Origin: a virus
Taxonomy: Duplodnaviria; Heunggongvirae; Uroviricota; Caudoviricetes
Reading direction: 5' to 3' (one strand)
DNA: 11,454 bases
IMG/VR virus record: IMGVR_UViG_2585427747_000005
The position numbers and the translations under genes are program-made. Positions within the stretch are counted from its first letter, which is position 1. Every line of letters starts with the position of its first letter. A model generated the notes under the pieces. The model did not search any database. It had not been told where the DNA came from and was given only the letters and a program-made list of their open reading frames with translations. Shown here in pieces: positions 1 to 11,454 of the stretch.

Positions 1-1218
1 ATGAACAAACTGAGCGATACCTTGCTAAGGAAACTTCATGGTAAGCCAGCGGAGAAAAACACGTTTTATAGTGATGGCGGAAACCTGAGCGTGAAATATT
101 TAACATCAGGGAAATTGACCTGGTATTTCACATACAGGGCCGGAACGGGAAGGGAGACACGACCCGAACGCATTAAGCTGGGAAGTTATCCTGATCTGAG
201 CCTGAAAGCAGCCAGGGAAAAAGCCGCACAGTGTCGCACATGGCTGGCTGAGGGGAAAAATCCACGTCATGAGATGAATTACACCGTACAGGAAGCGTTA
301 AAGCCCGTAACGGTTGGCGATGCGCTCACCTACTGGCTTGAGTATTACGTAAAGGAAAACCGCGTGGATTATATCGCCCTGAAAAGGCGACTTAATAATC
401 ACGTAATACAGCAGATTGGTGCTATGCCGCTGGATAAATGCGAGCTACGGCACTGGCTGGCCTGTTTTGACCAGGTGGCAAAGCGAACGCCTGTTACTGC
501 CGGATTCGTGCTACAGGCGTGCAAACAGGCGCTTAAGTTCTGCCGTAGGCGGCGCTATGCAATCAGCAACGTTCTGGACGATCTGAACGTTGCGGACGTT
601 GGGAAAAAACCGGATATAAGCGAACGTGTCTTAAGTAACAAAGAACTTGGCGAATTATTGCAGGCACTGGACAAAAAAATATTCTCCCCTTACTACGTCG
701 CGTTAATCCGCCTCCTGATTGTCTTCGGAGCCAGAACGGTAGAACTGAGGTTATCGGAGATCGGGGAGTGGGATTTTACGGAAATGCTATGGACCGTTCC
801 GAAGGAGCACAGCAAAACGAAGGTCGCAATATTCCGGCCCATACCGGAAGCGATCCTGCCGTTCGTCACGCAGCTGGTGGAGCAGAACAGGCACACGGGC
901 TTATTGCTGGGGGAAGTGAAACAGGAGGCCAGCGTATCGCAGTATGGAAGATTAGCGCACTGGAGGCTTAATCACCCTCACTGGTCACTGCATGACATCC
1001 GGCGCACCTTTACAACCATGCTGAACGATTTAGGCGTTGATCCGCATGTCGTGGAGCAGCTTACAGGCCACCAGATGCCAGGAATGCAGCGAGTTTATAA
1101 TCATTCCCGTTATCTGGATGCGAAACGCAATGCGCTGGATATGTGGACGGAGCGGTTAGGGATACTGGCGGGAAAACATGAAAACGTAACCACGCTACCC
1201 GTAGCCAGAAGAAAATAA
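1..1218 (+). CDS. int: Tyrosine site-specific integrase, P4/CP4-57 family
   Basis: 405-aa ORF starting with ATG at 1; N-terminal arm-binding-type region (SDGGNLSVKY..WYFTYR); C-terminal catalytic motifs HDIRRT and VYNHSRY (HxxR and the catalytic Tyr). Confidence 0.9.
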   Translation: MNKLSDTLLRKLHGKPAEKNTFYSDGGNLSVKYLTSGKLTWYFTYRAGTGRETRPERIKLGSYPDLSLKAAREKAAQCRTWLAEGKNPRHEMNYTVQEALKPVTVGDALTYWLEYYVKENRVDYIALKRRLNNHVIQQIGAMPLDKCELRHWLACFDQVAKRTPVTAGFVLQACKQALKFCRRRRYAISNVLDDLNVADVGKKPDISERVLSNKELGELLQALDKKIFSPYYVALIRLLIVFGARTVELRLSEIGEWDFTEMLWTVPKEHSKTKVAIFRPIPEAILPFVTQLVEQNRHTGLLLGEVKQEASVSQYGRLAHWRLNHPHWSLHDIRRTFTTMLNDLGVDPHVVEQLTGHQMPGMQRVYNHSRYLDAKRNALDMWTERLGILAGKHENVTTLPVARRK

Positions 1219-2651: not shown

Positions 2652-2855
2652 ATGAGAAATCATACCACACACCCGCAAGGGCGGGACTCGCACGACCTGA
2701 ATAAATACATCTGGCGTTTTATCGCCCTGAGCACGGCACAACCGCGCGTGATTACCATCGAGGCCACCAGCGAACAGGAAGCGCGTCAGCAATCTCCGGC
2801 TGGCTGCGTGATGGTATTCGCTGCCCGTATTCGCCAGGGGTCACATCATGCGTAA
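2652..2855 (+). CDS. Icd-like / P4 Kil-region-like small protein
   Basis: 67 aa, GAGGT Shine-Dalgarno; motif YIWRF...ATSEQEARQQ...VFAARIRQG matches my recollection of the host cell division inhibitor Icd-like family. Confidence 0.55.
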   Translation: MRNHTTHPQGRDSHDLNKYIWRFIALSTAQPRVITIEATSEQEARQQSPAGCVMVFAARIRQGSHHA

Positions 2856-3141
2856 AAACCGCTTGCAAAAAATTATCACGGGGCTGTATGCTTCCCCCGT
2901 CGCCCACATGGCGACCGGGTTTGACAGCCTGAATACATCTGGCGGACAGCCGCCCACATCCGATAAGCGGTTTTTTTGTGTCCGTAAACCTACCCATACC
3001 CGCATTATGGCGGGGCGTAACGGGGGAGCCTTTGTGCTCGCTGGTTTCCAGATGACCAGTCTGTCAACCCTGTTACGTCTCGCCACCATGTTTGACAGCG
3101 TAGTAGCGAGACTCCTTAAAATTCATCTGGGAGCCTTTCAC

Positions 3142-3309
3142 ATGGCTGTATCCGCACGCCCTTATTTTGTCTGGCGCTTTATGCAGTGCCTGACAGACAG
3201 CATTGCAATATTCACCGTTACCGCTGCCACTGAGCGCGAAGCACGTGCACAGCTGCCGCACGCACATCTGATTTTTGTCGCCCGTATTCGTCAGGGGGTA
3301 GGCTTATGA
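3142..3309 (+). CDS. Icd-like paralog (second copy)
   Basis: 55 aa from the ATG at 3142 (GGAG Shine-Dalgarno); YFVWRF...ATEREARAQ...FVARIRQG parallels the first copy. A longer in-frame ORF starts at 2848 but its N-terminal 98 aa look non-protein-like. Confidence 0.5.
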   Translation: MAVSARPYFVWRFMQCLTDSIAIFTVTAATEREARAQLPHAHLIFVARIRQGVGL

Positions 3310-3539
3310 GTCAGGAAATCACACTACAACAGGCAGCAGAACGCGCCCACCAAATCGAAGTTATTTGCGCACTGGCAGAGGATTACCCTGGCATGATGAC
3401 CGACAGCGAATCAGGGGCAATCATCGGCTTACTTAAACGCCTTAGCGGTGAGGTCTGCGTATTCCTGAGCGATGAACAGGAAAGAAGAACGCTTATTTCT
3501 AACGAAAAAAAATGCGGAGGGGTACACCATGTGCAATAA
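3306..3539 (+). CDS. Hypothetical small protein
   Basis: 77-aa ORF; ATG overlaps the upstream stop (ATGA), suggesting translational coupling; no recognisable motif. Confidence 0.45.
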   Translation: MSQEITLQQAAERAHQIEVICALAEDYPGMMTDSESGAIIGLLKRLSGEVCVFLSDEQERRTLISNEKKCGGVHHVQ

Positions 3540-3750
3540 CATCCGTCCGGACGCAGCAGCCGCCGCGCTCACTACGCTGATGCACGCGCTTATCGATATT
3601 GAATGCACTGCAGAGCTTGCGCAGGGAGAAGAACAGAAAGACCGGACACAGTTCGCCCTGGAATGTATCCGATACATCGCAACGCGGTCGCTGAATGAAG
3701 CTAAAAATATTCTTGTTGCTGATTGTGAAAATGGGGGGGGTTATGCGTGA
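3529..3750 (+). CDS. Hypothetical small protein
   Basis: 73 aa from the ATG at 3529 with a GGAGGGG Shine-Dalgarno (the track ORF begins at 3472); no recognisable motif. Confidence 0.4.
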   Translation: MCNNIRPDAAAAALTTLMHALIDIECTAELAQGEEQKDRTQFALECIRYIATRSLNEAKNILVADCENGGGYA

Positions 3751-3976
3751 TGATCGTTTTAATTCCCTGAAACAGGAATTTTCCGGCGTTCCTGATGATG
3801 CGGCTGATGCGCTTTCGTCAATGCCAGAACTTATTAGAGCGGCTTTTTTCTTACTTTCCACGAGAGAATATAAATCAACGGGGCTTGATGTACTGAATAT
3901 CGCCGCCGATTATGCGGAATATGTGGCAGAGGCGCGTTATAGAAGAAAATTTCCTGAGGATGTAAGCCATGCGTGA
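3743..3976 (+). CDS. Hypothetical small acidic protein
   Basis: 77 aa from the ATG at 3743 after a G-rich Shine-Dalgarno; start embedded in ATGCGTGA overlapping the upstream stop. Confidence 0.45.
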   Translation: MRDDRFNSLKQEFSGVPDDAADALSSMPELIRAAFFLLSTREYKSTGLDVLNIAADYAEYVAEARYRRKFPEDVSHA

Positions 3977-4202
3977 TATTTACCACGAAACAATAGACCG
4001 CGCATTTCTTGCACTTTCTCACAGTGAAAACATGCTGGAAATATTGCGCATATGGCTTGAAACACTTGGCGACAATGAACGCGACAAACAAAAATCAAGA
4101 ATTGCCACGGCATTAATAACGCTTCTTGAGCCTGTAATAATGGAACTGCAAGAAATAGATCTATTGCACGACAGATATAAAGAACAGCACACCGGAGAAT
4201 AA
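3969..4202 (+). CDS. Hypothetical small protein
   Basis: 77-aa ORF; ATGCGTGA start/stop overlap with the upstream gene; helical-looking sequence. Confidence 0.5.
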   Translation: MRDIYHETIDRAFLALSHSENMLEILRIWLETLGDNERDKQKSRIATALITLLEPVIMELQEIDLLHDRYKEQHTGE

Positions 4203-4207
4203 AAATA

Positions 4208-4507
4208 ATGAAACTTAAATATTCTGGCTTAACTGCCAGTGGCAACACTCACCCTAAATTTACGCGCGGCGATATTTACCGCGACCAGTACGGCGGCACG
4301 GTAATGATTAAGGGCGTGGAAGAACGGCGCGTAACCTACCGCCGTGAAGGTTACGAATATGATTGCGTGATGCCTGTTTATCAGTTCCGGCGTGATTTTT
4401 CTCTGGTACAGACCGCGCCGCATAACGTGTCCACCAGCAACGCCAGGGCACGGGCAAACATCCAGAAGCTGAAAACCATGATTAACGGATTCAGGGGTAA
4501 AAAATGA
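4208..4507 (+). CDS. Hypothetical protein
   Basis: 99-aa ORF, GGAGA Shine-Dalgarno; stop overlaps the start of the replication gene (ATGA). Confidence 0.5.
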   Translation: MKLKYSGLTASGNTHPKFTRGDIYRDQYGGTVMIKGVEERRVTYRREGYEYDCVMPVYQFRRDFSLVQTAPHNVSTSNARARANIQKLKTMINGFRGKK

Positions 4508-6258
4508 AACTGGCACCGAACGTAAAACAGCAGTCACGCGGCATAAAACACAAAGAAACAGAAGTCATTATTTTTGCGGGTAGTGATGCCTGGTCACACG
4601 CAAAACAATGGCAGGAACATGACGCGCGTATGGCCGGAGATAATGAGCCTCCTGTGTGGCTTGGGGAGCAGCAGTTATCCGAACTGGATAAGCTGCAAAT
4701 TGTGCCGGAAGGCAGAAAATCCGTGCGCATATTCAGGGCCGGATATCTTGCGCCAGTAATGATAAAGGCGATTGGTCAGAAGCTGGCGGCGGCAGGCGTA
4801 CAGGATGCAAATTTTTACCCTGATGGTATGCACGGTCAGAAGGTGGAGAACTGGCGCGAATATCTGGCCCGTGAGCGCCAGAATCTTTCTGATGGTCTGG
4901 TCATTGAGCTTCCGGTAAAGCAAAAGGCGCAACTTTCGCAGATGGCGGACAGTGAGCGCGCGCAGCTGCTTGCCGATCGCTTTGATGGCGTTTGCGTACA
5001 TCCTGAAAGTGAAATCGTTCACGTATGGCGCGGCGGGGGATGGTGTCCGGTCAGCACAATGGAACTTAGCCGCGAAATGGTGGCGATCTATTCAGAGCAC
5101 AGGGCCACTTTCAGCAAGCGCGTAATCAATAACGCCGTGGAAGCGTTAAAAGTTATTGCCGAACCAATGGGCGAGCCGTCCGGCGATTTGTTGCCGTTCG
5201 CCAATGGTGCGCTTGACCTGAAAACGGGGGAATTTTCCCCGCACACGCCGGAGAACTGGATCACCACGCACAACGGCATTGAGTACACGCCACCAGCACC
5301 AGGGGAGAACATCCGCGATAACGCGCCAAACTTTCATAAATGGCTTGAGCACGCAGCCGGAAAAGACCCGCGCAAGATGATGCGTATATGTGCCGCGCTG
5401 TACATGATTATGGCGAACCGGTACGACTGGCAGATGTTTATTGAGGCCACCGGAGACGGCGGGAGCGGTAAAAGTACATTCACACACATAGCCAGCCTTC
5501 TGGCAGGGAAACAGAACACGGTAAGCGCTGAAATGACATCGCTTGATGATGCTGGTGGACGTGCGCAGGTTGTCGGGAGTCGTCTTATCGTCCTGGCTGA
5601 CCAGCCGAAATATACAGGCGAAGGAACGGGCATCAAGAAAATCACGGGCGGTGACCCCGTGGAAATTAACCCGAAATACGAAAAGCGTTTCACGGCGGTA
5701 ATCAGGGCGGTGGTGCTGGCGACCAACAATAACCCGATGATATTCACCGAACGGGCCGGAGGTGTGGCACGTCGTCGCGTGATTTTCCGTTTCGACAATA
5801 TCGTCAGTGAGGCCGAAAAAGACAGGGAGCTACCGGAAAAGATCGCGGCTGAAATCCCTGTCATTATCCGCCGATTGCTGGCGAACTTTACCGACCCTGA
5901 GAAGGCACGGGCTTTACTACTGGAACAGCGTGACGGTGATGAAGCTCTGGCAATAAAGCAACAGACGGATCCGGTTATTGAGTTTTGCCAGTTCCTGAAT
6001 TTTCTGGAGGAAGCGCGCGGCCTGATGATGGGGGGCGGTGGCGATTCAGTGAAGTACACGACCAGGAACAGCCTTTACCGCGTCTATCTGGCGTTTATGG
6101 CATACGCAGGCAGGAGCAAACCGCTAAACGTAAATGACTTTGGCAAGGCTATGAAGCCAGCCGCGAAAGTTTACGGACATGAATATATTACGCGGAAAGT
6201 TAAGGGAGTAACGCAGACTAACGCAATAACAACAGACGATTGCGACGCGTTTTTATAA
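4504..6258 (+). CDS. Replication initiator: P4-alpha-family primase C-terminal domain / SF3-type NTPase
   Basis: 584 aa; Walker A GDGGSGKST, Walker B-like RLIVLADQ, D5_N-like segment LPFANGALDLKTGEF; no obvious TOPRIM primase motif seen in the N-terminal third. Confidence 0.85.
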   Translation: MKLAPNVKQQSRGIKHKETEVIIFAGSDAWSHAKQWQEHDARMAGDNEPPVWLGEQQLSELDKLQIVPEGRKSVRIFRAGYLAPVMIKAIGQKLAAAGVQDANFYPDGMHGQKVENWREYLARERQNLSDGLVIELPVKQKAQLSQMADSERAQLLADRFDGVCVHPESEIVHVWRGGGWCPVSTMELSREMVAIYSEHRATFSKRVINNAVEALKVIAEPMGEPSGDLLPFANGALDLKTGEFSPHTPENWITTHNGIEYTPPAPGENIRDNAPNFHKWLEHAAGKDPRKMMRICAALYMIMANRYDWQMFIEATGDGGSGKSTFTHIASLLAGKQNTVSAEMTSLDDAGGRAQVVGSRLIVLADQPKYTGEGTGIKKITGGDPVEINPKYEKRFTAVIRAVVLATNNNPMIFTERAGGVARRRVIFRFDNIVSEAEKDRELPEKIAAEIPVIIRRLLANFTDPEKARALLLEQRDGDEALAIKQQTDPVIEFCQFLNFLEEARGLMMGGGGDSVKYTTRNSLYRVYLAFMAYAGRSKPLNVNDFGKAMKPAAKVYGHEYITRKVKGVTQTNAITTDDCDAFL

Positions 6259-6270
6259 TTTTTTGCAATG

Positions 6271-6498
6271 GCTGTCTACCCTGTCTACCTGAGTAAAGAA
6301 AAATACATTTAATTCAGTATATTAACTTAGGTAGGCAGCCTTTTTTCACTGTCTACCTACTATCTACCCTCTCTACCTGATTTTACCTGAATCAGACAGG
6401 GAGGTAGATACGGGGTAGATAGTGGATAAAAGCACTCTACCCCGCTGAAAGCCGCGCCATTACTGGCATGAGAGCCAGTAAGGTAGATAAGGTAGACA
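6271..6498. repeat. Origin of replication: iteron array (TGTCTACC and variants, both orientations)
   Basis: TGTCTACC at 6273, 6282 and 6350; ATCTACC at 6362; CTCTACC at 6371 and 6434; inverted GGTAGATA/GGTAGACA at 6403, 6414, 6482 and 6491; immediately downstream of the replication gene. Confidence 0.7.
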
Positions 6499-6546
6499 AG
6501 GGGAGGCACAACTCAAAACTTTTTAAACGAGGGGGTAAAAATAAAA

Positions 6547-6804
6547 ATGCGCACATCAGGAAAACTTAATAATCAGAAGAAGCAGCATAACCGCGCCATT
6601 GACCTTACAGAGCACTGGCTGAGAGTGGCGATAAAAATCATCGACCGCAACACGGGGGAAGGATACGCGAAAGCACATCCCGACCTGATAAGCGCATTCA
6701 TGACCACGGCGGCGGCAAACTTTGCCACGCTGACAGAACGGGAGATTGCCGAAGCGGAACAGGTAACAACCATCAACGTTAAAACCGGAGAGGTGGAATC
6801 ATGA
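6547..6804 (+). CDS. Hypothetical protein
   Basis: 85-aa ORF with a GAGGGGG Shine-Dalgarno; stop overlaps the SSB start (ATGA). Confidence 0.5.
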   Translation: MRTSGKLNNQKKQHNRAIDLTEHWLRVAIKIIDRNTGEGYAKAHPDLISAFMTTAAANFATLTEREIAEAEQVTTINVKTGEVES

Positions 6805-7223
6805 CAGCACAGATAGCAGCTTACGGGCGGCTGGTGGACGACCCGCAGGTAAAACAGACCAGCAAGGGCACACCAATGACGCTGGCACGTATGGCGGTCC
6901 CCCTTCCGTGCAGCCAGGCAGATGACGGAACGGCGACGATGTGGTTATCCGTCCTGGCATTTGGCAGACAGGCCGAAGCACTGGAAAGGCACCGCAAGGG
7001 TGAACTCCTGAGCGTGGCGGGTAACATGCAGATCAGCCAGTGGACTGGGCAGAACGGAGAAACGCGGCAGGGCTGGCAGGTTATCGCAGACAGTGTAATC
7101 AGTGCGCGAACGGCGCGACTGGGCGGCAAAAAAGGTCAACAGGGCCAGGCTACTGACGCGCTGAACAGGGCAAAACAACAGGCGGGGAATGATGATCCGT
7201 ACGGGGATAACATACCGTTTTAA
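6801..7223 (+). CDS. ssb: Single-stranded DNA-binding protein (SSB-like)
   Basis: 140 aa; OB-fold-like conserved positions (W..V.AFG..AE, RKG, W....G..R) and an acidic C-terminal tip DDPYGDNIPF resembling the E. coli SSB D-IPF tail. Confidence 0.75.
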   Translation: MTAQIAAYGRLVDDPQVKQTSKGTPMTLARMAVPLPCSQADDGTATMWLSVLAFGRQAEALERHRKGELLSVAGNMQISQWTGQNGETRQGWQVIADSVISARTARLGGKKGQQGQATDALNRAKQQAGNDDPYGDNIPF

Positions 7224-7325: not shown

Positions 7326-7441
7326 GTGATTTTATCGTCATCATCATCATGAGCGTAATTTATTGTTTTTAATTGTTTTGATGCAAAAAAGATGATGGTT
7401 ATGGTTAATTTTTGTTCGACATCTTTGCAGGCAGATAAAAA

Positions 7442-7478
7442 AGCCCGATAAGGTCAGAGGTGGCTTATCGGGCTTTTG
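7442..7478. terminator. 11-bp-stem hairpin flanked by A and T runs (possible bidirectional terminator)
   Basis: AGCCCGATAAG-gtcagaggtgg-CTTATCGGGCT then TTTT; A-run upstream. Confidence 0.4.
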
Positions 7479-7554
7479 CATATGAGGCTTTTTGGTGCAC
7501 TGACACACATGATCGGGATAATCATTTCATAATTTGCAACACAACTCAATATCA

Positions 7555-7603
7555 TTGCACAAAATGCAATCATGATTATAATCAGAGCTGGATGAACATC
7601 CAG
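7555..7603 (+). promoter_or_regulatory. Sigma70-like promoter for the head module, with overlapping palindromes
   Basis: -35 TTGCAC (7555-7560), 16-nt spacer, -10 TATAAT (7577-7582); ATTGCA-N5-TGCAAT (7554-7570) overlaps the -35; CTGGATG-aa-CATCCAG (7588-7603) sits at the predicted transcription start. Confidence 0.4.
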
Positions 7604-7638
7604 TTATGATTTTTTAAGTCGAAGAGGAATTTCTTACT

Positions 7639-7845
7639 ATGGCTGAAGAGAAAAAAGGCGGTGTTTCGGTGTACATAAGCCCCGAAATCGTGGAGGTGCT
7701 CAAGCAGCGCCACAAAAAAAACTATGAGGCTGGCGTGGCGGCTGGACTGGATCCGCTGATGACGCCGGAGCCGTCGATAGGTTCACTTGTACGCTCTTAT
7801 TTACTTGCGGCGCTTGGGATGCATAAAAATTATGGGGGTGAATAA
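7639..7845 (+). CDS. Hypothetical small protein upstream of the capsid gene
   Basis: 68-aa ORF; stop overlaps the capsid start (TAATG); possible strand-helix start (VSVYISPEIVEVLKQ). Confidence 0.5.
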   Translation: MAEEKKGGVSVYISPEIVEVLKQRHKKNYEAGVAAGLDPLMTPEPSIGSLVRSYLLAALGMHKNYGGE

Positions 7846-8900
7846 TGGCAGGCAAAGCAACGGCACTTAACACTCACCAGCTTTTTGCGTACCTGAATCG
7901 CGGGGATATTGCGGAATTTAAATTTAGTCCGCTGTTTACCACGCTGTTTTTCCCGAAAGTAGCGACATTCAACACCCAAAACATCATGCTGGATAACCTG
8001 GACACCGAAGAAGTCACTATGTCAGCGTTTTGCTCGCCTATGGTTGGTAGCCAGGTACAGCGCGATAAAGGGTACGAAACCAGCACGATTAAACCTGGCT
8101 ACATGAAGCCAAAGCACGAAATCGATCCAACAAAAACCATCATGCGCATGGCTGGAGAAGATCCGGCACAGCTTAACGACCCAACCTATCGCCGTATGCG
8201 CCTGATTACTGGCAACATGCGCCGCCAGGTAAACGCTATTAAAGCGCGTGTTGAATGGCTGGCGGTAAATGCGGTAACGACCGGAAAAAACATCATTGAG
8301 GGCGAAGGCATAGAACGCTATGAAATCGACTGGAAGATGCCGGAAAACAACATCATAGAGCAGGCCAAAGGCCGTAAATGGTCCGAGCAGGACAAAGAAA
8401 CCCACGATCCAATCTATGATATCGAGCTTTATGCGGATCAGGGCAATTGCCCCGCAAACGTCATGATTATGGGCGCTGAGGTATGGCGCACGTTACGCAG
8501 CTTTAAAAAATTCCGCGAACTGTACGATCTTTCCCGTGGTTCAGAATCCGCCGCAGAACTGGCCTGTAAAAACCTGGGCGAAGTGGTGAGCTTTAAAGGC
8601 TATCTGGGCGATATTGCCCTTATCGTCTATTCCGGCAAATACGCCGACAGCGACGGCACCGAAAAACATTTCCTTGAGCCTGATTTGCTGGTCTTGGGCA
8701 ACACCAACAATAAAGGGCTGGTTGCTTATGGTGCGATTATGGATCAGGAAGCGGTAAGAACGGGCGCAACGCAAAACATGTACTACCCGAAAAACTGGAT
8801 TGAGGACGGCGATCCGGCGATTGAGTACGTGCAGACGCACAGCGCACCGCAGCCGGTGCCGGCAGACATTCGCAAATTTGTTACCGTCAAAATTGGTTAA
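7845..8900 (+). CDS. Major capsid protein, lambda gpE family
   Basis: 351 aa; FKFSPLF..LFF, PGYMKPKHE, EDPAQLNDPTYRRMR, YPKNWIEDGDPAIEY..SAP match remembered lambda gpE segments (FKFDPLF..LFF, PGYVKPKHE, EDPQNLADPAYRRRR, YPKNWVTTGDPAREF..SAP). Confidence 0.9.
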   Translation: MAGKATALNTHQLFAYLNRGDIAEFKFSPLFTTLFFPKVATFNTQNIMLDNLDTEEVTMSAFCSPMVGSQVQRDKGYETSTIKPGYMKPKHEIDPTKTIMRMAGEDPAQLNDPTYRRMRLITGNMRRQVNAIKARVEWLAVNAVTTGKNIIEGEGIERYEIDWKMPENNIIEQAKGRKWSEQDKETHDPIYDIELYADQGNCPANVMIMGAEVWRTLRSFKKFRELYDLSRGSESAAELACKNLGEVVSFKGYLGDIALIVYSGKYADSDGTEKHFLEPDLLVLGNTNNKGLVAYGAIMDQEAVRTGATQNMYYPKNWIEDGDPAIEYVQTHSAPQPVPADIRKFVTVKIG

Positions 8901-8911
8901 CGGGGGATTCT

Positions 8912-9247
8912 ATGAACACTCCATACATTGAGTTATTTGCAGGCAGTCAGCAGGTATCCACGACGCTGGTACATTTTGCCGCTGATGCTGGCGTCATTCA
9001 GGAATTTACCCCGCTGATGCTGGCGGACAATGGCGAGTTTAAGCCGTGGGATGGTCAGGCGTCCGGAAAGGCTGTTTATCTGACTTCGTACCCCGTGGAC
9101 ACGTCAAAGCAGAAATCAGCACAGTGCTACAAGACGGGGATCTTTAATATCGCCGCCGTGAACTGGCCCGAGAGCGTCGACACCGATGCGAAAAAATGCG
9201 CCGCCTTTGCGGGTTCTGGCGTATCCGTTCAGCCGCTGGCCCGATAA
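8912..9247 (+). CDS. Head decoration protein, lambda gpD family
   Basis: 111 aa; TPLMLADNG..WDGQASGKAV...YKTGIFN..WPE...KKCAAFAGSGVSV parallels lambda gpD TPLMLDTSS..WDGTTDGAAV...YKSGTFR..WPE...KKRTAFAGTAISIV. Confidence 0.85.
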   Translation: MNTPYIELFAGSQQVSTTLVHFAADAGVIQEFTPLMLADNGEFKPWDGQASGKAVYLTSYPVDTSKQKSAQCYKTGIFNIAAVNWPESVDTDAKKCAAFAGSGVSVQPLAR

Positions 9248-9259
9248 GCAGGGGGAACG

Positions 9260-9673
9260 ATGGCAACGAATGAAAGCATCATGACGCTACCGCTGGCGAG
9301 TAAATTTAAAGCCGAAGCGCGGGCAATGGCTGACAGAGGTTTATCAACCTACGAGGCCGTATATCAACTCAACAAACTGGAAGAGCAGGACAAGCCGCGC
9401 GCTGATGCGATTATGGCGCTTCATGAGCATAACGACTATCAGCCGCTGTTACGTGCAATGGCAAACGTGCCTTGTATCGATGTTGGTACGGCTAAAAGCA
9501 TCCTTAGCATGACCATAGAGCAGGAACGCCAGAAGGTTGCGCCGGAGCTTACCGCAGCCTTTGAAAACTTTATGGACATGCACAGCCCGCAAGCCGTTTC
9601 AGCTGGCATGGCATACGACGGCAGAAACCCGGGCGATGATGGCGACATCGAGCGCATACTGAAAACCATCTGA
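9260..9673 (+). CDS. Hypothetical protein, last gene of the head-module operon
   Basis: 137-aa ORF with an AGGGGG Shine-Dalgarno; acidic and helical-looking; no confident homolog recognised. Confidence 0.55.
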   Translation: MATNESIMTLPLASKFKAEARAMADRGLSTYEAVYQLNKLEEQDKPRADAIMALHEHNDYQPLLRAMANVPCIDVGTAKSILSMTIEQERQKVAPELTAAFENFMDMHSPQAVSAGMAYDGRNPGDDGDIERILKTI

Positions 9674-9679
9674 GACAAG

Positions 9680-9702
9680 GCCGGAGAAATCCGGCTTTTT
9701 TT
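9680..9702 (+). terminator. Rho-independent terminator
   Basis: GCCGGA-gaaa-TCCGGC followed by 7 T; near-identical to the hairpin at 7240-7255. Confidence 0.7.
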
Positions 9703-9770
9703 ACGGGTCCTTTCCGGCATATGGACCCGTTACGGGGCGGCGACCTCGCGGGTTTTCGCTATTTATGACG
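9703..9770 (+). other. cos: Lambda-type cos site (cosQ-like segment plus cosN GGGCGGCGACCT at 9735-9746)
   Basis: ACGGGTCCTTTCCGG...CCGTTACG|GGGCGGCGACCT|CGCGGGTTTTCGCTATTTATGA matches remembered lambda cos flanks, diverging only in the cosQ-cosN spacer. Confidence 0.8.
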
Positions 9771-9835
9771 TTTTTCCGTGAAGGTGACACCACCACCACT
9801 TGATTAATATTTAACCATGCAGTTAAGGTAACATT

Positions 9836-10276
9836 ATGATTGATAAAGCTTGTTTTGTAAGTCAGCAGGAAATAGCTGAACATTTCAAGGTTAACAGAAC
9901 CACTATTCGCGCATGGACCAAACAGGGGATGCCGTATCTTAATGCGGATCGCGGAAAGTCTGGCGGTTATCACATCGGGCATACATTGCTTTGGTCTTCA
10001 GGTAAAAGCCGTCTTGAGGCCATCAGATATCACGTAGAAACCAGTGCGCTGGAAAAAATTATGTTTGCCAGGCTGCTTTCATCTGAGCGTGACGAGTACT
10101 CCAGTGAAGAAACAGAACATAGATTTGATGAAGGTTTACAGATTTACGGCTACTCACCGGAAGAAGTGAGCAAAGCGCGAAATAAAATGGCCGGCTTTCT
10201 GGCTGGGTGGCGTCATGCCGTAAGCGTTCGCCGTGCCAGCATGGAACAATCAGTCGTTACAGAACAGCAAAGTTAA
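9836..10276 (+). CDS. Terminase small subunit homolog (lambda Nu1-like wHTH); Rpp-like packaging-redirection candidate
   Basis: 146 aa; VSQQEIAEHFKVNRTTIRAWTKQGMPYL parallels lambda Nu1 KKQLADIFGASIRTIQNWQEQGMPVL; no large terminase gene in the window. Confidence 0.8.
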   Translation: MIDKACFVSQQEIAEHFKVNRTTIRAWTKQGMPYLNADRGKSGGYHIGHTLLWSSGKSRLEAIRYHVETSALEKIMFARLLSSERDEYSSEETEHRFDEGLQIYGYSPEEVSKARNKMAGFLAGWRHAVSVRRASMEQSVVTEQQS

Positions 10277-11307: not shown

Positions 11308-11454
11308 TTAGTTATATATAACAGCAATAAATAATGCGAGAATAAACGGCACGATGATCTCGGCGGCAAAACGGATACCGCAGAGAATAATGACCAGCAT
11401 TCCCAACATAATGACGATTTTTAGGCCATTGAGCGTGATGATCGGCTTTGCCAT
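11308..11454 (-). pseudogene. tqsA: 5' fragment of an AI-2E family transporter gene (tqsA/ydgG-like), interrupted after about 46 codons
   Basis: Minus-strand translation [45 protein letters not shown] matches my recollection of the E. coli TqsA N-terminus, then diverges (IYN, stop at 11308-11310). Confidence 0.55.

Follow-up and report, generated by a model that had tools for sequence, protein, structure and literature searches.

Genes and RNA features of the early operon

The window, the whole 11,454-nucleotide stretch analysed here, is an 11.4-kb island that splits tqsA and carries int, alpA, a primase gene with iterons 3' of pri, SSB and gpE/gpD-like genes. It has the int - alpA - pri/rep - ori layout, the size (~10-15 kb) and the own att site of Gram-negative PICIs, and tail and lysis genes are absent, as is also demanded of these elements. 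Nucleotide identity to EcCICFT073 is 95% over positions 3274-7105 and 94% over 7437-10272. On sequence, the element is an EcCICFT073-type PICI, a close relative of the Gram-negative prototype, and not a P4. The DNA is matched in 1363 of 5426 complete E. coli genomes. Except for the replication origin, which is given no strand, the genes, RNA features and tracts located below are on the plus strand.

The c1489-c1493 region of EcCICFT073 (Fillol-Salom et al. 2018, PMC6092414) holds the same five small ORFs in identical order, and both islands encode alpA, primase, SSB, gpE-like capsid and gpD-like decoration genes (c1499/c1500). They differ in integration site (tqsA in the window, upstream of phoQ in EcCICFT073), in the allele of the third ORF (77 versus 73 aa), and in a 433-bp cassette (2841-3273) that only the window has. 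The alpA gene (1584-1772; Pfam Phage_AlpA, E=1.5e-16; also a PGAP CDS) encodes an HTH protein of the AlpA family that activates the PICI operon. In EcCICFT073, genes are switched on by AlpA, which is itself induced by the helpers lambda and phi80, and with these two helpers EcCICFT073 has been shown to be induced and transferred at high frequency (PMC6092414). The EcCICFT073 literature that we examined does not discuss the five ORFs, and the CFT073 and Sakai locus tags gave nothing relevant either.

The five ORFs (O1-O5; 77, 73, 77, 77 and 99 aa) fill positions 3306-4507. A chain of five ORFs of 73-99 aa between Icd-like genes and the replication gene was originally predicted from the DNA, and annotation, selection and contig copies all bear it out. 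NCBI PGAP calls the same five CDS in a 100%-identical genome, a G-rich Shine-Dalgarno (SD) motif precedes every start by 6-14 nt, and the exact proteins each occur on 766 to at least 1000 contigs. In-frame dN/dS is 0.28-0.49, against 0.8-1.6 in both shifted frames; the values of 0.4-0.5 for O2-O4 are fairly relaxed. O1-O5 are genuine protein genes under purifying selection.

Most of the junctions are stop/start overlaps. The leader meets O1 in an ATGA (3306-3309), O1 and O2 share the 11 nt ATGTGCAATAA (3529-3539), O2/O3 and O3/O4 both share ATGCGTGA (3743-3750 and 3969-3976), and O5 meets the primase gene in a second ATGA (4504-4507). The overlap chain first described is correct for the ATGA and for both copies of ATGCGTGA, and the O1/O2 overlap, which had not been listed, can be added to it, but it is interrupted between O4 and O5, where there is a 5-nt spacer, TAAAAATAATG.

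The 433-bp cassette upstream of the chain encodes a C4/CI-type antisense (immunity) RNA at 3003-3090, a full-length match to Rfam RF01695 (72.6 bits versus a gathering score of 45, E=5.8e-13) close to the 74.9 scored by P4's own CI RNA. Its a1/b1-type upstream targets lie at 2886-2935 (RF03163, E=2e-9), with a score of 46.8 bits that barely passes the gathering score of 46.7. A predicted downstream target (3123-3135) covers the SD of the leader (GGGAG) and is complementary in silico to the C4 loop at 3043-3055, with 11 Watson-Crick pairs over 13 nt, a value equalled in 29 of 2000 shuffles (1.5%). P4 also has an analogous C4 target that covers a ribosome binding site (RBS). The leader is a 55-aa Icd-like ORF (3145-3309, ATG at 3145), which PGAP annotates as a 153-aa ORF (2848-3309) with an NCBIfam NF033153 (phage_ICD_like) match at residues 107-149 (E=2.4e-13). 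Proteins that appeared in a cluster listing as Icd-O1 fusions are a clustering artefact and are really this 153-aa ORF. Twelve other islands that were examined lack the C4 cassette, and only ~122 of 5426 genomes have it; C4 gating would characterise this variant and not the module generally.

Downstream of the chain, positions 4504-6258 encode the replication primase/helicase (D5_N, DUF5906 and Pox_D5; Pfam, NCBIfam TIGR01613), whose C-terminal part is P4-alpha-like (phmmer E=2e-108 against P4 alpha). A repeat search located a probable replication origin at 6272-6500, with at least 12 TGTCTACC/GGTAGACA iterons in both orientations. PICI origins sit directly 3' of the replication gene (PMC6092414).

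The window is collinear with the P4 left operon (vis - CI RNA/'cI' ORF - epsilon - orf151 - orf106 - alpha). Both have an AlpA/Vis-type HTH protein, a C4-family RNA nested in an ORF whose C-terminus is Icd-like, a C4 target over the SD of an ORF beginning ATGGCT, and a small-ORF chain with 8-nt stop-start overlaps, followed by an alpha-type primase. Their morphogenesis genes differ (gpE/gpD-like capsid in the window, sid/psu/delta in P4). The positional analogy with P4 in the original prediction holds up well: a C4/CI-type RNA and an Icd-like leader are directly upstream of O1, as they are ahead of epsilon, and O1-O4 occupy an epsilon-like position, as the first genes past the immunity RNA and Icd-like ORF, before the primase, with overlapping stops and starts. 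None of O1-O5 matches the epsilon family (PF25738 'Derepression'; phrog_10016) at E<=0.1, whereas P4 epsilon itself matches at E=4e-50. Searches of O1-O5 against P4 epsilon, orf151 and orf106 by phmmer, hmmsearch and hhalign gave no match apart from one weak signal, between O5 and the N-terminus of orf151 (hhalign P=0.004, 46 columns). O2-family members led an initial phmmer ranking against epsilon (E ~0.02, in an 80-sequence database), but homology to epsilon was rejected (family HMMs <=0.7 bits, hhalign <=0.5%), as was orf106 homology of O1-O5, which neither family HMM nor hhalign supported.

Similar arrangements occur in P1/P7 immI (c4 RNA - icd - ant) and in Salmonella Gifsy-1 (IsrK-orf45-anrP). 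In both, the transcript also yields a small RNA that regulates how a short leader (icd or orf45) is translated, and this leader is AUGA-coupled to the payload, as predicted for the window; IsrK-orf45-anrP is a precedent for this design (PMC4825925). The payload is an Ant/KilA-type antirepressor in P1 and Gifsy-1 versus five small ORFs and a primase in the window, and the Gifsy-1 RNA differs in sign, as IsrK activates and C4 represses.

Cassette variation and a hypervariable poly-G tract

We compared the array across 95 related loci and scored cassette presence in 13 curated islands; a contig query with the O5 protein alone returned 2 loci only, because it reaches close relatives alone. Lack of conservation in related islands had been named as grounds for refuting the original prediction. 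The ORFs are conserved, with junctions that are stereotyped across the 95 loci. The islands run from an Icd-like leader through shuffled cassettes, O4 and O5 to a replication gene of one of four unrelated types (D5_N/DUF5906 primase, P4-type primase, DUF927 or RepA helicase), and O5 is 69-100% identical throughout. The order is fixed, with O1 (optional) and other cassettes first, then O2 - O3 - O4 - O5 - Rep. The cassettes occur independently of one another and in differing combinations, from 1 to 5 per island. The first 4-11 nt of each cassette bring the stop codon of the preceding gene, and the ATGnnTAA/TGA overlaps are cassette-specific and independent of the upstream gene. ATGA joins O5 to Rep in 95/95 loci and Icd to O1 in 24/24, and the 5-nt gap between O4 and O5 is kept in 91/93. 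Cassette content showed no co-variation with replicase, capsid or alpA type among related islands; the array assorts freely and therefore gives no hint of a target through co-variation. The alternative cassettes (f5, f6 and distant O4 types), scanned with Pfam and PHROG, matched unknown-function PHROGs only.

The proteins encoded by O1-O4 are acidic (pI 4.6-5.0), in contrast to the basic O5 (pI 10.2), and their families are restricted to E. coli and Shigella, O1 alone having relatives (38-41% identity) in temperate phages. No relatives of O2-O4 were found in 50,697 phage records. Pairwise BLASTP and family-versus-family hhalign (<=1%) revealed no mutual homology among O1-O4, and on these grounds an origin by tandem duplication was rejected.

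O1 (3306-3539, pI 5.0; phrog_1478, E=3e-28) is an optional cassette, present in 6 of 13 curated islands and in exact sequence on at least 1000 contigs. In Fels-1 and in temperate phages of Klebsiella, its homologues adjoin the repressor gene in the early-left operon. The O1 family is thus common to these islands and to lambdoid early-left (PL-type) moron-like ORFs such as Fels-1 STM0898.6n. The Fels-1-type operon resembles the window in that the O1 relative is one of several small ORFs that overlap in series, there following the repressor gene, and O1 is the only ORF that the lambdoid early-left operons and the window have in common. An A8 tract near the O1 C-terminus (3505-3512) has a run length of 8 in 22 cases and 7 in 2, and the A7 variants fuse O1 to O2, as in the fusion protein P0284.

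O2 (3529-3750, start ATG at 3529, 73 aa, pI 4.6) and O3 (3743-3976, 77 aa, pI 4.8) are always adjacent and in that order across islands. O2, the N-terminal partner, corresponds to phrog_5146 and the N-half of phrog_2512 (94 relatives, dN/dS 0.49), and O3, the C-terminal partner, to the C-half of phrog_2512 and to phrog_24341 (122 relatives, dN/dS 0.38); all of these relatives are from E. coli or Shigella. The state of the pair is set by a hypervariable poly-G tract at 3733-3740, G8 in the window, that doubles as the SD of O3. Its length varies from G7 to G11 among loci with identical 40-nt flanks, and control homopolymers are almost invariant, with homopolymer sequencing error being possible in individual assemblies. 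The two ORFs are fused at G7 and G10, split at G8 and G11, and split with a 28-nt overlap at G9. G7 produces fused proteins of 154 and 144 aa, found on at least 1000 and on 566 contigs, respectively, and O3 is intact in all three states. O2 and O3 read as halves of one unit, split or fused by poly-G length. The tract has the sequence hallmarks of a contingency locus: a homopolymer of at least 7 residues whose length varies among alleles that are identical elsewhere, shifting the reading frame.

O4 (3969-4202, 77 aa, net charge -7; phrog_2196, E=8e-42) is the constant neighbour of O5, directly upstream of the DUF4222 gene in 93-94 of 95 loci, and in 1.84 billion proteins its family is limited to 9 cluster representatives.

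Of the remote-homology and structure checks that were originally proposed, the first identified O5 by its DUF4222 match; O1-O4 remained without a functional match, and structure prediction was uninformative. PADLOC defence models gave 0 matches for O1-O5, and PDB sequence searches with O1, O4 and O5 returned nothing credible. AlphaFold2 models were of low confidence, both for O5 (single sequence, pLDDT 58) and for the natural O2-O3 fusion P0100 (60-sequence alignment, pLDDT 56), and Foldseek found no PDB match to either at E<0.8. The low-confidence O2-O3 model is all-helical in secondary structure.

O5 and the RgdR family

O5 (4208-4507, 99 aa) matches Pfam PF13973 (DUF4222) along the entire profile (positions 1-53 of 53, residues 16-68; 85.7 bits versus a cut-off of 27, E=1.6e-24). 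It has the RGD motif at R20-G21-D22, although only G-D is invariant in the wider DUF4222 family, and it is 95% identical to CFT073 C1493 and 80% identical to the annotated EHEC RgdR. The five substitutions relative to C1493 all fall within residues 13-27. The seat directly upstream of the replication gene is shared with CFT073 and with locus L004, where the gene is annotated as rgdR, and is kept in 95/95 loci. By profile, motif and position, O5 is a member of the RgdR/DUF4222 small prophage regulators. The original statement that the functions of the five ORFs are not known consequently stands for O1-O4 but not for O5, since both C1493 and RgdR have been studied experimentally.

Flockhart et al. 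2012 (PMC3378721) described RgdR (ECs1581), from EHEC O-island 51 / CP-933C, together with C1493, its orthologue in UPEC. RgdR is a protein of ~99 aa with a conserved core at residues 20-68 and a functionally important RGD at residues 20-22, and O5 resembles it and C1493 in length, DUF4222 domain, RGD position and seat ahead of the island replication gene. Both RgdR and C1493 activate LEE1 and type III secretion, and both lower motility; non-specific DNA binding was seen for RgdR (PMC3378721). The combined effects of raised LEE1 expression, reduced motility and raised Congo-red binding resemble loss of H-NS silencing, an inference of our own. RgdR acts on LEE in EHEC, and the host of the island in the window need not have LEE. 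Even when no helper induces the island, loss of rgdR produces a phenotype (PMC3378721); in O-island 51, at least, the operon is therefore not completely silent.

Possible roles of the chained genes

The EcCICFT073-type satellite and the RgdR family were already known; the C4 RNA in such an island and the poly-G split/fusion toggle are new. How might these parts work together? We consider it reasonably probable that O1-O5 are cassettes of an AlpA-activated PICI early operon running from leader to Rep, with a C4-gated translational relay, a regulator in O5 and protein binders in O1-O4. In the quiescent island, the C4 RNA would mask the RBS of the leader, and the untranslated transcript would be terminated or left untranslated, as in P1 immI and P4 immunity, keeping O1-O5 and the primase low. 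On induction of AlpA by a helper phage, transcription would rise, and ribosomes on the leader would re-initiate through the stop-start overlaps, so that O1, O2, O3, O4, O5 and the primase would be delivered together. O5 would then act as a DNA-binding regulator, on the model of its orthologues. O1-O4 are small, acidic and probably helical, without DNA-binding or enzymatic signatures; judging from composition and secondary structure, they would most likely be helical protein-binding adaptors for host or helper proteins, and O4 may be a partner of O5.

A more ambitious joint reading, which we advance tentatively and think unlikely, sees recombination-ready cassettes that each bring the stop of their upstream neighbour, and a poly-G tract that is a true phase-variable or slippage switch by which a single island population produces O2-O3 as two chains, fused or as a tail variant. 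O2-O3 and/or O1 would target the helper or the host, for instance by antagonising a repressor or a defence system, and would be set free only once the C4 gate opens; RgdR and O4 would be a nucleoid-remodelling pair of the satellite itself.

The original prediction offered the ORFs as candidates for helper derepression, interference or anti-defence. On this account, at least one of O1-O4 would be an antirepressor or derepression factor like P4 epsilon, P1 Ant or Gifsy-1 AnrP that disables the repressor of the helper prophage, or else an interference or anti-defence protein. For O1-O4 such roles are conjectures, derepression being suggested by position only, and we think them unlikely. In 3/3 characterised systems (P4 epsilon; P1 ant, PMC8201110; anrP, PMC4825925), the gene coupled to a C4/IsrK-type RNA and an Icd-like/orf45 leader is an antirepressor, and the same RNA and leader are directly upstream of O1 in the window. 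The proximity of O1 relatives to the repressor gene in true temperate phages points the same way, as do the small size and acidity that are typical of protein-binding inhibitors and the arms-race-like variability of the cassettes. However, O1-O4 have no homology to epsilon, to Ant/KilA/Bro or to any PADLOC model, and related islands have separate Bro-N or AntA/AntB antirepressor genes between alpA and ylcI. Furthermore, in published PICI biology the helper induces the island and not the reverse (PMC6092414), and cassette content does not track capsid (helper) type.

A possible but doubtful alternative has O4 and O5, and perhaps O2-O3, assisting the replication protein, whether by remodelling or marking the origin, by loading the primase/helicase or controlling it, or by bringing in replication factors of the host; RgdR would then be a DNA-binding replication cofactor whose influence on LEE and motility is secondary. 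The invariant ATGA coupling of O5 to the replication gene, the near-constant placement of O4 before O5, the DNA binding of RgdR, the iteron-rich origin downstream of the primase, and the weak likeness of O5 to the N-terminus of orf151, which is in the equivalent place upstream of alpha, are all consistent with such a role. Against this, O5 keeps its identity across four unrelated replicases, which argues against a replicase- or origin-specific partner, and RgdR has trans effects on chromosomal promoters. Only pri and int are reported as needed for EcCICFT073 replication, other genes being unnamed (PMC6092414).

Could translation itself be the only purpose of O1-O4? Their translation would carry ribosomes from the leader to O5 and the primase and prevent Rho polarity, and the products would have little or no function. 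Cassette content is indeed less strictly conserved than junction grammar, anything from 1 to 5 cassettes makes a working island, O1-O4 are lineage-restricted ORFans with relaxed dN/dS, the frame at the O2/O3 junction is free to change, and the IsrK-orf45-anrP leader varies in amino acids while being conserved in nucleotides (PMC4825925). This account is improbable: every family has a clearly lower dN/dS in frame than out of frame, O3 survives every poly-G state and the O2-O3 order is invariant, O1 is retained at 38-41% amino-acid identity in unrelated phage genomes, and ~900 nt are more than a pure relay would call for. Finally, successive ORFs step +1 in frame and fusion variants (O1-O2, O2-O3, O3-O4) exist, but the notion that O1-O5 arose by chance, or are frameshifted pieces of a single larger gene in decay, is effectively refuted by an own SD and ATG for each ORF, purifying selection in every annotated frame, thousands of identical copies, independent and variously recombined cassettes, and families without detectable mutual similarity.

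Roughly one in four complete E. coli genomes carries the module, among them Nissle 1917, ATCC 25922, CFT073 and O157:H7. The C4 RNA, which a minority of the islands possess, shows that immunity modules of the P4 type circulate among PICIs. Through RgdR, a phage satellite is already connected with type III secretion, motility and the colonisation of ruminants. As an invariant replicase-coupled gene with an acidic neighbour, O4, this 'virulence regulator' may be recast as a core gene of the satellite life cycle. The stop/start relay, the C4 RNA gate and the poly-G split/fusion switch are testable handles, and O1-O4 are inexpensive candidates for helper- and host-manipulation screens. Should the joint reading of cassettes, poly-G switch and C4 gate be true, Gram-negative PICIs would have a counterpart of P4 epsilon with a built-in mechanism of variation.

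Five chained small ORFs in an EcCICFT073-like island

Five consecutive small ORFs are encoded on the + strand between an Icd-like leader and the replication gene: O1 (3306-3539, 77 aa), O2 (3529-3750, 73 aa, ATG at 3529), O3 (3743-3976, 77 aa), O4 (3969-4202, 77 aa) and O5 (4208-4507, 99 aa). The chain named in the original prediction was recovered in the window, and exactly these CDS are annotated by the NCBI pipeline in a 100%-identical chromosome. The Icd-like ORF meets O1 at ATGA, O1 and O2 share an 11-nt overlap (ATGTGCAATAA), and O5 meets the 584-aa primase at ATGA. The anticipated stop/start overlaps hold for ATGA and for ATGCGTGA, which forms both the O2/O3 and O3/O4 junctions, but O4 and O5 are separated by a 5-nt spacer. 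G-rich Shine-Dalgarno motifs occur at all five starts.

O1-O5 are real genes. The region is matched in 1363 of 5426 complete E. coli genomes (364 at ≥80% of its length), and the exact proteins occur in 766 to at least 1000 contigs apiece. Nei-Gojobori dN/dS values, calculated from phylogenetically non-independent pairs, are 0.29 (O1, 3 informative pairs only), 0.49 (O2), 0.38 (O3), 0.43 (O4) and 0.28 (O5) in the annotated frames, vs 0.8-1.6 in the two shifted frames.

At 11.4 kb, the window is an island whose insertion splits tqsA. Besides integrase and alpA genes and Icd-like ORFs, it carries genes for a primase of the D5_N/DUF5906 type that is related to P4 alpha (E=2e-108), for an SSB, for a capsid protein like lambda gpE and for a gpD-like decoration protein. 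Iterons (TGTCTACC/GGTAGACA, both orientations) are present in at least 12 copies directly 3′ of the primase gene (6272-6500) and are probably the replication origin. The island carries the same five ORFs as EcCICFT073, the prototype Gram-negative phage-inducible chromosomal island (PICI), with 95% identity over 3274-7105 and 94% over 7437-10272. In EcCICFT073, AlpA activates the island genes, alpA is induced by the helper phages lambda and phi80, and replication requires pri and int (PMC6092414). Our literature search on EcCICFT073 found no discussion of O1-O5. The stretch is the orthologue of this unstudied EcCICFT073 stretch, and includes an RgdR-family member.

The interruption of tqsA (ydgG) concerns the two ends of the window (1-1218 and 11308-11454): the 5′ end of the gene is at the right edge, on the - strand, and in the matching chromosome its remainder is found past the integrase. 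Related islands that share this small-ORF module occupy at least five further sites: near roxA, at tRNA-Pro beside yejM, near cspD/yljB, near rcnR and within a phage portal gene. The product of 9836-10276, 3′ of the capsid and decoration genes, is 146 aa long and has a helix-turn-helix at its N-terminus (weak Pfam HTH hits; PADLOC mad1 E=7e-5, confined to the HTH); it might act in packaging redirection (Rpp-like) or in regulation.

A probable RNA gate at the leader and the comparison with P4

Rfam models identify a full-length C4 antisense RNA at 3003-3090 (+; 72.6 bits vs a gathering score of 45) and its a1/b1 targets at 2886-2935 (+; 46.8 vs 46.7 bits), both within an annotated 153-aa ‘Icd-like’ ORF. 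That annotation is probably an artefact, and the real Icd-like ORF is likely the 55-aa leader that begins with ATG 3145 and whose end forms the ATGA overlap with O1. The C4 loop (3043-3055) has 13-nt complementarity to 3123-3135, the GGGAG Shine-Dalgarno of ATG 3145, a kind of match reached in 1.5% of shuffles. The P4 CI RNA is arranged likewise, its site covering the AGGAGG of an ORF with the same ATGGCT start, and P4 immunity works by the same mechanism as P1/P7 immI. In P1/P7 immI, the RNA blocks leader translation and downstream expression is turned off (Citron and Schuster 1990; Riedel et al. 1993; via PMC8201110). Gifsy-1 IsrK-orf45-anrP is a tested case in which an sRNA controls a leader ORF with AUGA coupling (PMC4825925). 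Given the predicted loop pairing and these related systems, the O1-O5-primase chain would most likely be gated by the C4 RNA at the leader’s ribosome-binding site. Absent from EcCICFT073, the inserted 433-bp C4 segment (2841-3273) was not found in 12 other islands, and 122 of 5426 E. coli genomes carry it at ≥80% of its length.

Upstream, within 1830-2452, a degraded Icd-like pseudogene (+) overlaps a YlcI/YnfO-family gene (2273-2452, -); in almost every related island this divergent pair is found again, placed between alpA and the Icd-like leader. Rfam also gives a sub-threshold match to the SymR antitoxin RNA (2579-2651, -; 33.3 bits vs a gathering score of 61), which lies antisense just upstream of a 67-aa Icd-like ORF (2652-2855) and is conserved in sister island L006 (3731-3803). 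The match may mark a further antisense regulator or be due to chance.

The segment alpA - C4/Icd-like - O1 to O5 - primase is collinear with the P4 left operon (vis - CI RNA/‘cI’ ORF - epsilon - orf151 - orf106 - alpha, joined by 8-nt overlaps), so the predicted equivalence of position to the P4 helper-derepression protein epsilon is sound as an analogy of layout. It does not extend to homology: epsilon belongs to PF25738, and a Pfam search placed none of O1-O5 in that family. Family HMMs and hhalign gave no signal relating O1-O5 to epsilon or orf106. The sole hint is a weak alignment of O5 with the orf151 N-terminus (hhalign P=0.004, 46 columns, probability 8%), the first 52 residues of P4 ORF151 (L016 7440-7895) matching the DUF4222 core of O5; the Pfam DUF4222 model did not detect ORF151 at E≤1. 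The alignment may reflect remote homology linking P4 and PICI left operons.

Cassette order and the O2/O3 joint

We scored 95 loci with family HMMs, drawn from 13 curated E. coli islands, IMG/VR and species-representative genomes and biased to close relatives. Their common order is Icd-like leader - (f6) - (O1) - (f5) - O2 - (f5) - O3 - O4 - O5 - Rep, where O1 and the alternative cassettes f5 and f6 are optional. Conservation in related islands, on which the original prediction depended, is evident: O5 is present and ATGA-coupled to the replication gene in 95/95 loci, and an O4-family gene precedes it in ~94 of 95 (a distant ECs1580-type member included). Four unrelated Rep types follow O5: a D5_N/DUF5906 primase, a P4-type primase, a DUF927 protein and a RepA helicase. 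Each cassette type has a fixed start motif enclosing the stop codon of the upstream gene, whatever that gene (ATG(TGC/CAC)AATAA for O2, ATGCGTGA for O3, and ATGCATAA or ATGATTAA for f5), and translational coupling therefore survives shuffling. Replicase type, alpA allele and capsid type (gpE-like, HK97-like or ClpP-capsid fusion) vary independently of cassette content.

O2-type and O3-type domains are invariably adjacent, O2 first, and in many islands form a single 144-154-aa ORF (phrog_2512); exact fused proteins occur in at least 1000 and 566 contigs. O2 and O3 make up one unit, and what varies is its joint, a poly-G tract (3733-3740, +) that doubles as the O3 Shine-Dalgarno motif. At G8, as in the window, O2 and O3 are separate ORFs overlapping at ATGCGTGA; G7 or G10 fuses them in frame, and G9 gives two ORFs with a 28-nt overlap and an altered O2 tail. 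The tract ranges from G7 to G11 among loci sharing identical 40-nt flanks, and other homopolymers of these loci are nearly invariant. Homopolymer lengths in single records may be assembly errors, but the split and fused states are not artefacts because both are too common. Near the end of O1, an A8 run (3505-3512, +) is A7 in 2 of 26 loci, producing an O1-O2 fusion via an alternative upstream O2 frame (3472-3750); this fusion protein, P0284, has 47 member sequences.

Possible functions of O1-O5

All five ORFs were predicted to be of unknown function, which stands for O1-O4, whose PHROG matches are to families of that kind, and not for O5. The latter matches Pfam DUF4222 (85.7 bits), whose sole characterised member is RgdR (ECs1581, EHEC O-island 51). 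O5 is basic (pI 10.2), 95% identical to its CFT073 counterpart C1493 and 80% to annotated RgdR, and retains the RGD motif (residues 20-22). Flockhart et al. (PMC3378721) found both RgdR and C1493 to be activators of LEE1 and type III secretion and repressors of motility, with residue 20 important for this activity; in EMSA, RgdR bound DNA with no sequence specificity, and OI-51 deletion reduced sheep colonisation. The phenotypes reported for RgdR (LEE1 and Congo-red binding up, motility down) would fit a loss of H-NS silencing. A low-confidence AF2 model suggests that O5 has a small beta domain (~residues 23-62) and, after it, a basic helix at the C-terminus.

O1-O4 are all acidic (pI 4.6-5.0), had no Pfam, NCBIfam, PADLOC or PDB sequence match, and showed no detectable relationship to one another. 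A search of 5.8 billion clusters returned 94 O2 and 122 O3 relatives, all from E. coli/Shigella, and an exhaustive HMMER search of 1.84 billion proteins returned only 9 cluster representatives for O4. O1 alone reaches true phages: Salmonella phage Fels-1 and temperate phages of Klebsiella encode relatives (38-41% identical) in their early-left operons, just downstream of the repressor gene. The AF2 model of the natural O2-O3 fusion is all-helical with low confidence (pLDDT 56), and fold searches with it found nothing.

Most likely, O1-O4 are protein-binding early factors delivered by translational relay. Helper derepression by these proteins is unlikely, and stays alive as an analogy because an antirepressor is the coupled payload in the three characterised systems with a C4/IsrK-type RNA and leader. 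However, some related islands have recognisable Bro-N or AntA/B genes elsewhere, and in published PICI biology it is the helper that induces the island. These genes, of the Bro-N or AntA/AntB antirepressor families, lie between alpA and ylcI in sister islands L013 (2298-2876) and L014 (2286-3088); thus, recognisable antirepressors exist in the island family, outside the small-ORF array. An accessory role in replication is similarly doubtful, and that the ORFs serve purely as a relay is improbable indeed.

The five-ORF stretch is a real and widespread, but largely known, feature. To this the analysis adds a cassette grammar, a core of O4, O5 and the replicase that does not vary, a poly-G tract that switches O2/O3 between split and fused forms and, in this variant, a putative P4-type C4 RNA gate.
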